Of a DNA stretch of 64,000 bases, positions 20,001-29,000 are shown one piece after another. A program made the position numbers and the translations under genes. Each line of letters opens with the position of its first letter. The stretch's first letter is position 1. The notes beneath the pieces are model-generated. The model made no database searches. It was not told where the DNA came from and saw nothing but the letters and a program-made list of their open reading frames with translations. Origin of the DNA: Eledone cirrhosa (Eukaryota); contig OZ024740.1 of assembly GCA_964016885.1 (NCBI GenBank), positions 361,460,001 through 361,524,000 on the forward strand. The letters are read 5' to 3'.

Positions 20001-23000
20001 ATGTGTCAATAATTGACACAAGTGTAGTGTTTGTACCAGAGTTTTCAAGTCGCTGGCTGGACTAAAAAGTCACACTCGTTCAGCGCATCGGTAGGGGTTC
20101 TCCTACATGGATATAAAGTAGTGGCCGTACTCGAAAACGAGTTGGCAGCCACCATGTATGTATGTATGTATGTATGTATGTATGTATGTATGTATGTATG
20201 TATGTACAATTAAATACATACAAACACATGTTTGTATATATATATATATATTTATATATATATATATCACGATACATTAATGGAGCCATAGACTCTCGCC
20301 GTTCCCTGTAAATAATGTGCTCAAATGAGAGGAAATCCTGAGCTCTTTAAAATACAATATGTTGAAAATGTAACACACTAGAGAGAGATACAGTGAGCTA
20401 TCAATAAAACAGGGAAAAACCACCAGTGTATGGAATCTATAACCTATGAAAGGCAGAGTATAGACACGATAATTAAAAATATAAATTAAAGCGTAAATAA
20501 ATACCTCTATAACTATATAACACACGTACAAATCCAAAGTGATCTGTTTCGCCAGTAAGTTGTTCACAGAAATGAAATAACCCAGGTTCATCAGCGTGTG
20601 TACACACGCATTACACACGCTGATGAACCTGGGTTATTTCATTTCTGTCAACAACTTACTGGCGAAACAGATCACTTTGGATTTGTACGTGTGTTATATA
20701 GTTATAGAGGTATTTATTTACGCTTTAATTTATATTTTTAATTATCGTGTCTATACTCTGCCTTTCATAGGTTATAGATTCCATACACTGGTGGTTTTTC
20801 CCTGTTTTATTGATAGCGCACTGTATCTCTCTCTAGTGTGTTACCTTTTCAACATATTGTATATATATAAATATATATATATATATATAGGGAATGTAAT
20901 GTCCAGTTAAAATAGGTTCACCTGAGTGAGCACTTGATGCGTAGTTTCCAGTCTGTAAAGAGGTGTAGAACTAAGCAGAGTGTAAATATAATAATAAAAG
21001 GACGATTTGTTATGCCTTCATTAGGTTTATTGAGTAGTGACGCGCGTTTCACTATTGATCAGCTCAAGGTTCAATCTGTATCGATCTAGCACGACACTGG
21101 AATCAAAAGCTCGTCTGACCACAGCAGAGGACCGACGAGCTTCTGATTCCAGGGTCGTGCTAGATCGATACAGATAGAACCTTGAGCTGATCAATAGTGA
21201 AACGCGCGTCACTACTCAATAAACCTAATGAAGACATAATAAATCGTCCTTTTATTATTATTATTATTATTGTTATTTTTATTATTATTTTTCGCAGTGG
21301 ATTGGCAGTATCGGTAGAGAGTCGGACACCATGCTTTGCAGCATAGAGTTACGGCCCTTTACGTTCTGAGTTCAAATCCCGCCGTGGTTAACTTTGCCTT
21401 TCATCCTTACGGGGTCGATAAAATAAAGTACCAGTCACGCACTGGGATCGATTTAATCGACTTTCCCCTCCCCCAAAATTGCTGTCTTGTGCCTATATAA
21501 GAAACCATTATTATTTATCGCGGTGGATTGGCAGTATAGGTAGAGTTTCAGACGCTATGCTTTGTAGCATAGAGTTACGGCCATTTACGGTCTGAGTCCA
21601 AATCCGCCGAGGTTAACTTTGCCTATGCACTGGCCTTGTCTCAAAAGTAGAAACAATTATTAATAAAAAAAAAAAAATAAATAAATACAGAAACCATTGT
21701 ATATATATATATATACTGAAATATGATAACATTCAAGATATAAAGTTGACGTTATCTCCGCACGTATACTCATGCACACACACACACACACACACACACA
21801 CACACACACACACACACACACACACACACACACACACACATTTATGATATATGTTGGTGTTATTTAAGTTGTGCTGTTTCTCGTGTTATTTTAGTGTTGC
21901 TCTTATCTACCACAACCTGACGGCCGTGGCGATTCACAAGGAGTGTCGGTCATTCTGCTTTCTGTGGAAGTACGTAAGTGCCAGGTGCTGTTAGTACCCA
22001 CGCCACGGTTACTTCGACATGCATGTTTTGTGGACTGTAAGGGCATGCGTTGTATCCGCAACACCTGTAAAGACGGTAGAATTCACTTGTAAAGAAAGTT
22101 TTTTTTTTCAGAGCTGGAATCATTAACAGAACTGTTGTTCTGTATGAGTTTATGACCGGGGCTTGGAAGCAGGAGTATTATCAGACGCTCACATAACTAT
22201 ATGGTGATCAGTTTACAACCCAGCCCCTCTCTTAATACGAACAACCAGCACAGAATCGAAGAAATCAGAGACAGTCACAAAACCAATTACTGATCTCTGT
22301 CCCCGATCCTCCTTATGCCATATGTATTTATGGATGTATTTGTACTGGAAGAAGGTTTCATAATAGAGAGCTCATTACTAGACTAGAAGTCTAATAAGGC
22401 CTCTCTATTTGTATTTAGATCGGAATCGCCGTTCCTTCTAATCACCCTTTTCCATATCAGGAGGCACTGCAGTGACTTAATTAAGAAAGGGTCTATATTC
22501 GAACTCTTTGCTGGGAACATAATCTCGCACCTCACAAAGAAACCTTTCTTTCAGGCAAATCCTCCCTCCCAATACGATCCAGTCCATAACATTCCAATAG
22601 CCGGGGACTTGTGAGTGTCTCCACTCTTACCAATGCTACTTCTTGTTAGAAGAGTGTCATCTCTTCGTTGAACATTGCACAATCATGTGCACGCAGATGA
22701 CTTTTCAGACCAACTTTATTTTGAAAGTTGTATTTATGTATCAGGCTTTCCCGATGATTTCTTTTGAATGAAACAGTTCTAGTCCTGTAGAAACCATTTC
22801 TATATTAAACATGATATATATATATATATATATAACAAATAGTTATCGCTCTACATGGCTGAATGTAATAATATAATCTGAGTTTTTCGAATATCAATAA
22901 TAATATTCGATTCGTTTGCAATTATGCAAAGAGCCTCTTTTAAGCCATGTCGATATAATGAGCCCCCCATTCTTGCTCTTGTGTTGGCATGTAAAGAGAA

Positions 23001-26000: not shown

Positions 26001-29000
26001 ATTATATCCCACTCACAAGGCACTGGTTTCATTACTGCAAGGATATGGTTCGAACGTGGAAGAGCCGAACTCCCACTGTCATTGCCTCCATCTCTCTTGC
26101 TCTCCCCATTTCTCCGTATGGTGAGTAAATGGGGTCCCACGTGCTGGCCTTCCCACAGCCCCGGGGGACAGGCGTTTCTCCGGAGGATGGTAATGTCTAA
26201 CAAAATATAGGTTGATCAAAGTACTAGATATTCAGCACTTAATTCAGCTCACCAATATAAATTTAAAGAATATGTTTTTAAATTATTTCATTAGGAGCAG
26301 TAACATAGAATGCAAGAGTAAGGTGTCTAGACAATACCTTACCCATACATTTTATATATACATATATATACATATTTATATATACATATATATATATATA
26401 CATATTTATATATACATATATATACATATTTATATATACATATATATATATATACATATTTATATATACATATATATACATATTTATATATACATATATA
26501 TATATATATACATATTTATATATACATATATATTAAGTCATCAAGTATAAAATTTGTTATTTTTCTACAAATTTCTACAAATTTCATACTTGACAATCCA
26601 ATATATACTGTAGTAAAAGTTTGGTAGAAATATGCAAGGGTAAGAAAGAGCACTCAGTCCATAGGACGAGTTTAGTATAAATAATTACAAGTGGCATAAA
26701 CAGGAACTTAAGTTCTGTTGGGTTCTGGACCCCAACTCATTCAACCTGACATAAGAAAAATATTTTTCTGGCACTGTTGTAATTATTTATACACACACAC
26801 ACACACACACACACACACACACACACACACACACACACATATATATATATATATGTGTTTGTTGTTGTTTGTGTGTGCGTGTGTGTGTGTGTGTGTGTGT
26901 GTGTGTGTGTGTGTGTGTGTGTGTGTGTGTGTGTGTGTGTGTGTGTGTGTGTGTGTGTGTGTGTGTGTGTGTGTGTGTGTGTGTGTGTGTGTGTGTGTGT
27001 GTGTGTGTGTGTGTGTGTGTGTGTGTGTGTGTGTGTGTGTGTAAATAAGACCGCAAATAGTCCAAACTTCAACGTAAACACATCTAGAACACACTCAAAG
27101 CTATACGCGGAATATGACTATCGATTGCCCTGACCCGTAAACAAAAAAAAAACGCCGAGAAAATCTCAAGTCAGTTATAAACTAAACGCTTATACTCGAT
27201 CTCGGACATTATCCATATTACCTGAACTTTTTATTCCGTAAACCAGCCACCCATCCGCACATACACACATACACACATACATACATACATACATACATAC
27301 ATACATACATACATACATACATACAGAATGTGCTGAATATAACAAGCCAGTGGAGAAATTCGCACAAAATCAGAGACGAACTTACATACTGAGGCACATC
27401 TGAGGATCTTTCGATTCCAGAGTCAGGTTCGATCAATAATAGATCGTTCCTCGAGCTGATTGACAGTGAAACATATGTAATATGTTATTAAATATGATAT
27501 GATGCAACACTGACTCATTGTTCCTTTATTCTTATACTATATATATATATATATATATATATAGTTAGAGAAGCAAAAAATTGCGGTCGTAAATACCTGG
27601 ATTAAATCCTTCTCTTAATGCTTACCTGTGTTTTCTCTTTTATACTATATATATATATATATATATATATATATTTCACCCACTTATTCTGAGAGAACCG
27701 TTGGGGGCAGAGTCCTTAAACACTCCTTCCAGCAGATCCTGTCAGAAGCAACCGTCTCCAGCTGACGTGGCTAGATCCCCAAGCAAGATCAGCCAAGCTA
27801 ATGGATGATATCCAACCATCTTGCTCAGGGTCTACCTCTGTGTCTCCTGCCAGTTGGTTTTGCTCGTAAAATCTGTCCAGCGATTCTTTCCTGGGACATT
27901 CTAATCACATGCCCAGAGTATTAGAGATGTGATCTCTCAATACAAAGAAGTGGCAGCTCTACCTGGAATGACTCTTTCGGTCATTACCCAGGATTCCTAA
28001 TCATAGGTAAAGGTTGACACGAATACCGAATTGTGAAAAGCTGGCAAGGGAATATTGCACCAGACTAAGGGAGATGACGGGCAAGGAGGCAGTGGGGCGG
28101 TGCTTTACAGCAGAGGTCCCCAACCACCGGGCCGCAGACTGGCACCGGTCCGTGGATCATTTGCTACCGGTCCGCAAAGAAATATTTAACTTGTTTAAAA
28201 TTATATTATAGATAAATTGAATATTGGACTTTAATTTAAACATATTTACACGAGAGTCAAAATATTATACACTTTCTCTTCCCTTTAATAAATTGCTCTA
28301 TTTACTATTGTTCTTTATCGAAACGGCACTTAAATAACACATATCCGCAGAAAGATTGTCCGGCATGAAGTTAGTCTGTGGTATAAAAAAGGTTGGAGAC
28401 CACTGGTTTAGAGAATGGTAGGTATGTTTATACAGGTTAGAAGTTAGGATAAGGGAAGCATGTGGGCGGGGTAGAAATGGGTAAGGGGTAGAAAGGGCTG
28501 AGAATATATAGATGGAAGAATAAAAATAAAAGATGGAAGAAGTGGGGTGAATGCTATCTATACGCACGCAAGCATAGAAATTAGATGATAAATAGATACA
28601 AAATATAAATAAATACAAGTAAGTATGTTTTGAAACAGCGAGCGAGTTAAATAGAAATAGAAACTTTCGCCGTATTTTTGACTAAAGAAATTTTAGCTTG
28701 ATAGTGGGGTCAATACTCATCTTTTTCCATTTCTTAGAGGGTTCTAAACCCCACTATCAGGCTAAAATTTCTTTACTAAAAAAATACGGCGAAAGCTTCT
28801 ATTTCTATTATAAATAAATAGTAATAAATAAATAATATAGGTTTAACGTTTGATATAGTAGAACGCGTCTTTACTTTTTGGACTCTAGTCTTTCATCAGA
28901 AGATAGAATGATGAACAAAAGATAATGTAGAAAGGAAGTGAGAAGAGGAAGTGAGAAAAAGAACGTATGTATCCAGTCCGCACACGGGCAAAAATATAGG

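Follow-up and report, generated by a model that had tools for sequence, protein, structure and literature searches.

Long-arm hammerhead-like repeats in the window

The stretch analyzed here, bases 361,460,001-361,524,000 of contig C1 in the 3.0-Gb genome of Eledone cirrhosa (64 kb, hereafter the window), carries four copies of short non-autonomous repeats that contain, in whole or in part, a motif resembling a type I hammerhead ribozyme whose helix II is extended into an arm of about 60 nt. A regular expression for the shared 3' motif found exactly four copies in the 64 kb: one copy of family F1 (locus 1), two copies of family F2 joined head to head (locus 2), and one 5'-truncated copy of family F3 (locus 3). 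When 22 copies of F1, F2, and F3 were compared, they aligned across the whole motif with a mean column identity of 69%. Judged from sequence, the window loci are thus diverged relatives within one superfamily of short, 5'-truncated repeats; since the families align over their whole length, the loci are homologous and not independent.

An earlier note on this DNA had described loci 1 and 2, together with the mirror copy of the latter, as hammerhead-like motifs with inserts of 61 nt and 60 nt, and we confirmed both at the same places and lengths, except that the core box of locus 2 reads CCGACGA and not CUGANGA. The 3' string reported as shared (cctYgagc...gatY...gtgaaac) was present in all four copies, and gattccag and gatcRata were indeed common to loci 1 and 2. 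Locus 3 was upheld in part: genuine family sequence is present in the GAAAC-AUGU-C segment (3964-3955) and in the 3' half of the arm, whereas the CTGACGA core and the 52-nt stem II are an artefact, because the CTGACGA box at 4023-4017 lies within an inverted fragment of the 3' end of the element itself and is not a homologous core box. The covariance model R1 (see below) gave locus 3 a score of 17.7 bits over 3940-4035, and the other three window copies scored 84.5-100.8 bits. Intact F3 members elsewhere consist of CUGAUGAG, a 60-61 nt arm, and GAAAC-AUAU-GUA. The description of the loci as otherwise dissimilar had to be given up in view of the alignment of the families throughout.

The repeats are abundant in the genome. 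First-look searches gave 2,746 candidates for the 121-nt core region of F1 (92-97% identity), 2,323 for F2 (about 91%), and 376 for F3 (82-92%). A pattern combining the core and the arm (CUGAUGAG, 40-52 nt, GAGC, 8-14 nt, GAAAC), which requires the exact C3-U4-G5-A6-N7-G8-A9 box at the correct arm spacing, matched 710 genomic copies (358+352), compared with 2 (1+1) for the same pattern reversed as a control. The arm-only pattern (AGTCNGG, 16-32 nt, CYTNGAGC, 8-14 nt, GAAAC) matched 8,050 places (4,027+4,023) against 1+0 in the control. The units are about 180-300 bp long, and 40-75 nt separate the hammerhead from their 3' end.

Predicted structure of the arm, the core, and helix III

A secondary structure was written by hand from F1, F2, and F3, and R1 was built on it. 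We then aligned 98 hits from 89 loci, which correspond to about the first 89 places of the 710-match list in genome order; the alignment has a median pairwise identity of 0.54 and falls into 44 clusters at 80% identity. The earlier note had proposed a structured stem II extension conserved across diverged families, and the motif not only survived in this larger alignment but also showed covariation that clearly exceeded shuffled and slid controls in helices I and II and in the inner arm. Standard pairs occupied 75.2% of the cells, compared with 63.5% in shuffles (0 of 500 reached the observed value), and the proportion was 25-32% when the partners were slid by 1-3 columns. Two-sided changes were found in 28 of the 30 pairs, a result reached by 0 of 500 shuffles, and compensatory changes occupied 416 cells, where 175 were expected. 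By segment, two-sided changes were seen in all 7 pairs of helix I (67.8% paired), in 10 of 11 pairs of lower helix II (81.6% paired), and in all 10 pairs of the inner arm (69.5% paired). The outcome was similar for a set of 42 copies, and pair swaps among F1, F2, and F3 could be recognized by eye, for example from C-G/A-U to U-A/G-C in P2b and from U-A to A-U in P2a.

The helix II arm is 56-62 nt long (mode, 60). P2a, of 8-10 bp, begins at 10.1/11.1 and is followed by a 2-nt bulge on the 5' side. P2b has 3 bp, which are CAG/CUG in F1 and F2 and UGG/CCA in F3-like families. Between P2b and P2c lies a conserved internal loop, 5'-AGU(C) opposite 5'-UGAG; P2c is RGG/CCU, and a variable hairpin follows beyond it. 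Among 88 pattern-selected copies, AGU was present in 67, though it is absent from the selecting pattern, and U preceded GAGC in 82. With RIBOSUM scoring, RNAalifold recovered P2a, P2b, and an inner helix on a structure-blind MAFFT alignment as well as on the cleaned alignment A2. Neither the sarcin-ricin/loop E consensus nor the kink-turn consensus fits the AGU/UGAG loop cleanly, and a resemblance of the arm to the A and B boxes of RNA polymerase III promoters is not kept across families.

In the core, 93 of 98 copies have the A15.1-U16.1 pair. Positions 10.1 and 11.1 form a direct pair, with no extra base after A9, and this pair was G-C in 46 of the 98 copies and G·U in 45. Because C11.1 and G12 form a CpG step, many of the U residues at 11.1 are probably decay products. 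The stretch from 15.1 to 16.1, which would form helix III, was a perfect palindrome in 30 of 88 copies (for example, ACAAUUGU and ACGCGCGU), compared with about 5.5 by chance, and many of the non-perfect palindromes are one CpG-type change away. At position 17, 66 of 76 parsed copies have a cleavable residue (A in 37, C in 25, and U in 4) and 10 have G. In the F4 copy L127 (F4 being a further family outside the three of the window), folding recovered 23 of 30 pairs, and a two-copy fold gave 8 intermolecular pairs in the helix III palindrome. Palindromic helix III is a known mark of type I hammerheads acting as dimers (PMC4209133, PMC6765202). A U·U at 10.1/11.1, as in the F1 copy of the window, has precedent in active natural hammerheads and reportedly allows more cleavage in natural hammerheads than other mismatches at this position (PMC3088659, PMC7229834). 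The RNA is predicted to cleave itself after GUH, likely as a dimer.

This variant of the type I hammerhead motif, with a conserved, structured helix II arm of 60 nt, is real, very abundant, and structurally supported.

Comparison with Rfam models

As had been anticipated, standard models miss this class. With Rfam 15, no hammerhead reached the gathering score in the window, and none was reported at an E value of ≤10 in the 64 kb; likewise, none appeared at an E value of ≤1 in seven loci, six of which contain canonical-core members. The sole hammerhead match, to RF00163 (Hammerhead_1) on a 401-nt slice, reached 16.5 bits, where the gathering score is 34; its register (CUGAUCA...GAAAC) is false, lying inside the arm. 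In the excerpts compared from descriptions of hammerheads in Penelope-like elements (PMC4209133, PMC13725137), a "long" helix II has only 6-8 bp; a long arm may have been described before. Strings of the long-arm motif did not occur in one supplement of PMC4209133 or among the consensus sequences of PMC8557442.

Features of the window copies

The coordinates of the window features are given in Table 1. The F1 copy is 5' truncated, with (CATA)n adjoining its left side and (TA)n on the other end; it has a U·U at 10.1/11.1 and one A·C mismatch in helix I. The two arms of the F2 pair are 96% identical, and the left arm has the core box CAGACGA at 21117-21111 on the minus strand, its motif extending from about 21117 to 21039. 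A TTA-rich linker precedes the tail of the left F2 copy, and (TA)n follows it. The palindromes of the window copies are ACAUAUGU, ACGCGCGU (twice), and ACAUGU, and the triplets ending at position 17 are GUA, GUC, GUC, and GUC.

TABLE 1 Long-arm hammerhead-like repeats in the 64-kb window
Feature	Position	Strand	Evidence or remark
F1 copy of short non-autonomous repeat	27327..27537	+	blastn against 11 other copies and alignment
Hammerhead-like motif of F1 copy (locus 1)	27389..27492	+	R1, 100.8 bits, E 2e-23
Locus 1, helix I	5' strand, 27393-27399; 3' strand, 27480-27486	+	
Locus 1, core	CUGAGGA, 27400-27406; GAAAC, 27468-27472 (GAAA, 27468-27471)	+	
Locus 1, helix II arm, 61 nt	27407-27467	+	
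Locus 1, palindrome ACAUAUGU and GUA	27471-27478; GUA ends at 27479	+	Predicted cut after A27479
F2 copy, right arm of head-to-head pair (locus 2)	21121..21249	+	R1, 84.5 bits; alignment with 10 other copies
Locus 2 right arm, core and insert	CCGACGA, 21132-21138; 60-nt insert, 21139-21198; GAAAC, 21199-21203	+	
Locus 2 right arm, palindrome ACGCGCGU and GUC	21202-21209; GUC ends at 21210	+	Predicted cut after C21210
Locus 2 right arm, element end ...AATCGTCC	21249	+	Followed by (TTA)n
F2 copy, left arm (mirror copy)	21000..21119	-	R1, 89.7 bits at 21026-21128
Optional 97-nt 3' tail (TACACTCTGCT...CATTCCCTA) of left F2 copy	20888..20984	-	Also in L016, L022, L023
F3 copy (locus 3), 5' truncated inside the arm	3894..3994	-	Other F3 copies match query 47-141 only
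Locus 3, retained parts	3' half of arm; GAAAC, 3964-3960; ACAUGU, 3961-3956; GUC ending at 3955; 3' region	-	
Piece of the F3 element's 3' end in reverse orientation, joined head to head	3995..4026	-	Query 1-50 matches 3' ends of other copies, reversed
Optional 75-nt tail (TACACTCTGCT...AACCTACA) of F3 copy	3819..3893	-	Same tail in L032

Insertion signatures and Penelope-like elements

The repeats share a characteristic set of insertion features. 5' truncation is heavy, with 64 first-look candidates for the 5' part of F1 against 2,746 for its 3' part. Inverted partial copies are always joined minus-then-plus, head to head, in 8 of 8 F1 pairs and in 7 of 7 close pairs among the first 100 places of the arm pattern; the inverted partner is variable in length, always 5' truncated, and joined at different points. 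A family-specific 3' tail of 60-100 nt, which starts with TAYACTCTGC and ends with CCTA(C), may follow a TA-rich linker. Homologous tails occur after F1, F3, and F4 copies, in a fraction of copies only, and F1 and F4 have a common conserved 3' region (score of 51 against a shuffle maximum of 30). Microsatellites, namely (TA)n, (TTA)n, or (CA)n, flank the copies. Penelope-like elements have been described with 5' truncation, an inverted 5'-truncated neighbor, an optional tail, and a bias toward microsatellites (PMC8557442), and the long-arm repeats show all four. The optional tail of Penelope-like elements has been attributed to two start sites of reverse transcription (PMC11167929).

Furthermore, a canonical Penelope-like element with a reverse transcriptase plus a GIY-YIG domain at the C terminus is extremely abundant in the same genome, with 36,223 first-look candidates for the endonuclease, and with respect to its tail, inverted copies, and (TA)n it behaves as the long-arm repeats do. 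Its 3' untranslated region contains a classical short hammerhead, CUGAAGA-G-GUCACA-GAAUG-UGUGAC-GAAA. Two 5'-truncated copies of this element lie in the window at 45013-45444 (minus strand) and 24764-24859 (plus strand), and a further one lies just upstream of it (G000:C1:361458502-361458888). Two candidates for a coding partner were rejected. A GIY-YIG fragment next to a hammerhead in L069/L081 belongs to a separate 5'-truncated Penelope-like insertion. The 5' part of F1, read as the end of a partner open reading frame ("...LLECxKY...RHI*"), has upstream stops in every copy, and the one 453-amino-acid open frame is a (TA)n run with N.

These shared signatures make mobilization by a Penelope-like reverse transcriptase likely. 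We infer this from the signatures, since the one autonomous family compared has a different hammerhead and no significant 3' similarity, and since no long-arm element bearing an open reading frame was found in the loci covered.

Some head-to-head F1 pairs (L164, G000:C6:68083535-68083660, and L175) switch strands inside the helix III palindrome (…TTACATATGTAA…), which hints that copying may snap back or switch templates at the palindrome.

Other hammerhead-like motifs and repeats

Hammerhead-like motifs with short helix II also occur in the window. One of them, CUGAUGA-AAGCACAC...GUGUCCUU-GAAA, lies at 47716-47786 (plus strand; R1, 29.2 bits), and a degenerate copy of a short-helix-II hammerhead-like motif lies at 46869-46939 (plus strand). 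Another, at 5280-5335 on the minus strand, reads CCGACGA-GCC...GGC-GAAAC-ACGU-GUA; it belongs to an unrelated family with a short stem and again has C at U4. A short-stem family with CUGAUGA-AGGG(U)AAU(C)ACCCA-GAAAC is represented by three copies, at 23015-23040 (minus strand), 36986-37010 (plus strand), and 37366-37389 (minus strand); in L019 and L027, a tail of the TAYACTCTGCT type follows its 3' region. A further family forms a head-to-head mirror pair at 20546-20594 (minus strand) and 20620-20668 (plus strand), each arm with CUGAUGA, 37 nt, and GAAAC and followed by a TATACTCTGCC... stretch, with tails near 20462 (minus strand) and 20752 (plus strand).

Besides, a tRNA-like head of a short interspersed nuclear element (SINE) (…GGTTCAAATCCCGCCG…TTTCATCCTTACGGGGTCGATA) is located at about 21290-21420 (plus strand), and the same element recurs in several other loci (e.g., L081, 7700-7600). 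Elsewhere in the genome, G000:C12:17019244-17478846 contains eight matches to the 5' part of F1 on one strand at a spacing of about 60 kb, which suggests a large segmental tandem duplication containing a copy.

Interpretation

Weighing these results, we consider it probable that the repeats constitute a decayed, non-autonomous superfamily that carries a type I hammerhead with a 56-62 nt helix II arm, predicted to cleave after GUH, likely as a dimer, and likely copied by a Penelope-like reverse transcriptase. Helix III would consist of one A-U and one C-G pair around a self-complementary tetramer. Because it is so short and self-complementary, an active ribozyme would form only when two RNAs pair at this place, in the manner of known hammerheads of animal retroelements. 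The invariant internal loop would serve to bind the copying enzyme or to dock with another part of the same RNA.

Several observations weigh against this explanation. The canonical core is present in 0 of the 4 window copies: F1 keeps a fitting 5' box (CUGAGGA) and has the U·U at 10.1/11.1, U4 is replaced by C or A in the two F2 arms, and the 5' half is missing from locus 3. The F2 consensus itself has C at the conserved U4 (U in 1 of 13 copies), a change expected to cripple catalysis. Genome-wide, 5' ends were not enriched at the cut predicted for F1, with 10 exact junctions against 7 and 1 at two control sites; 6 of these 10 are 7-nt deletions. Of the 36 F1 arms compared, 3 begin no more than 1 nt from position 1.1, and their junctions are ambiguous or centered on the palindrome. 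No tandem arrays, which would put two ribozymes on one transcript, and no same-strand neighbors within ≤300 bp were seen in the first 100 places of each pattern list. The sole same-strand close pair seen is a direct repeat of the 3' part of F1 with a 109-nt period (G000:C3:186652066-186652238). With regard to the fold, minimum-energy structures of single copies contain 0-23 of about 30 model pairs (seven full motifs) and 294 of 715 arm pairs (35 copies), RNAalifold with default scoring gives zero pairs on A2 or the MAFFT alignment, and the Rfam hammerhead models stay below threshold on long-arm copies. The alignments A2 and A3 are model fitted, which favors structure, and the alignment rows were picked by a pattern fixing CTGATGAG, GAGC, and GAAAC. 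As for the source of the copying enzyme, the hammerhead of the abundant Penelope-like element differs from the long-arm motif in being of the short form, its 3' end has no significant similarity to F1, F4, and F2 (376, 342, and 348 of 500 shuffles, respectively, reach the score), and no Penelope-like open reading frame was found beside a long-arm hammerhead in L001-L080, where about 3 kb per locus was covered and a subset of the open reading frames was compared with Pfam.

Some of these points would be expected if common descent were the whole explanation, that is, if a few master copies of SINE-like families had passed on a hammerhead-like stretch or dead relic whose arm has no RNA function and owes its conservation to their recent amplification. 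The three window families are homologous along their full length, copies within families are 82-97% identical, the biggest families have off-consensus cores, single copies seldom fold as a hammerhead, and there is no 5'-end spike at the cut. However, two-sided pair changes lie far above the controls over 98 copies in 44 clusters, the core and the AGU/UGAG loop are fixed while their surroundings vary, and the exact CUGAUGAG box stands at the right arm distance in 710 places against 2 in controls. We thus regard this explanation as unlikely.

5' truncation and inverted junctions also occur in retrotransposition of the long interspersed nuclear element (LINE) type. The repeats could accordingly be ordinary SINEs moved by a LINE, with the truncations, "twin priming" inversions, and microsatellite ends all being LINE features and the hammerhead a passenger; LINE endonuclease or reverse transcriptase fragments in some loci (L009, L056) and the lack of an identified Penelope-like partner agree with this. 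Such an origin appears very unlikely to us, since a discrete optional 3' tail is reported as a Penelope-like signature (PMC11167929), type I hammerheads with palindromic helix III are a hallmark of Penelope-like elements and their derivatives (PMC4209133; bioRxiv 10.64898/2026.07.22.740005), and this genome holds a hugely abundant Penelope-like element that behaves alike in its targets and tail. It is still harder to believe that the repeats are foldback DNA elements or miniature inverted-repeat transposable elements, in which the inverted repeat of about 250 bp (21000-21249) or its hairpin would be what matters and the hammerhead reading would be incidental. Locus 2 is indeed a near-perfect inverted repeat, inverted pairs are common, and Rfam microRNA-precursor models score the center of locus 2, below threshold. 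Nevertheless, most copies are solo (about 31 of 39 F1 places), the length and junction of the partner vary, with no fixed terminal repeats, and the invariable minus-then-plus orientation (8/8 and 7/7) fits the inverted 5'-truncated copy of Penelope-like elements (PMC8557442).

We therefore prefer the reading of a decayed hammerhead superfamily copied by a Penelope-like enzyme. Within it, the two most prolific families keep the arm with off-consensus cores (CCGACGA in F2 and U·U at 10.1/11.1 in F1), which would mean that spread selects the arm more strongly than fast cleavage. We tentatively raise the possibility, and hold it with considerable doubt, that the arm is a functional RNA domain, a module for recognition or docking built around the AGU/UGAG loop, and defines a new structural subclass of hammerheads, retrotransposition selecting the arm and not cleavage; such selection would explain why the catalytic cores of prolific families drift. 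If the arm is functional, it would offer a handle on what hammerheads do for Penelope-like elements and their parasites. Hammerheads of animal retroelements are usually described with a helix II of 4-8 bp, and as descriptors and Rfam models are built on this short helix, a class counting at least 8,000 members in a single genome goes unseen.

Comparison with known hammerhead ribozymes

The long-arm motif is like RF00163 (Hammerhead_1; clan CL00010) in its core boxes and in the helix order of type I, and differs from it in the long arm, for which the model has no place. Minimal type I hammerheads of Penelope-like elements are reportedly also treated by Lunse et al. (2017). As described by Cervera and de la Pena in 2014 (PMC4209133), such minimal hammerheads have a CUGANGA...GAAA core in type I topology, a tiny palindrome as helix III, which points to dimeric action, a short helix I, an AU-rich 3' flank, a retroelement context with (TA)n targets, and high sequence diversity within one genome, all of which are also found here. 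Their helix II, however, is 6-8 bp long and closes a small loop, and a base between 9 and 10.1 is unpaired (supplement consensus, CUGANGAH GNNNNN nnn NNNNNC GAAAN), whereas the long-arm motif has a three-segment arm of 56-62 nt with an invariant internal loop and no base after A9. Moreover, the minimal hammerheads lie in the pseudo-long terminal repeat of a Penelope-like element bearing an open reading frame, and the long-arm motif lies in units of about 180-300 bp.

Animal non-long-terminal-repeat retrozymes (PMC7229834; bioRxiv 10.64898/2026.07.22.740005) are likewise short non-autonomous repeats with type I hammerheads. They are present in thousands to over 100,000 copies and have been proposed to be Penelope-like derivatives, and one of them, the axolotl HHR_Amex2, has a U·U at the base of helix II, as F1 does (PMC7229834). 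Retrozymes form tandem arrays and have a canonical helix II of 4-5 bp, loop 1-loop 2 contacts, and circular RNAs (PMC7229834); in contrast, long-arm copies are solo or head to head, and their helix II is far longer. The Sm-alpha and Sj-alpha repeats of Schistosoma resemble the long-arm repeats in being dispersed, SINE-like, and of high copy number with one type I hammerhead per unit, but their helix II is of the canonical short type, and a promoter region lies upstream (PMC6765202). Finally, Naiad elements have been reported without canonical hammerheads but with "half cores" 35-50 nt apart (PMC8557442, in the excerpt compared). They are one example of how surveys reporting no canonical hammerhead may overlook forms with a long helix II.

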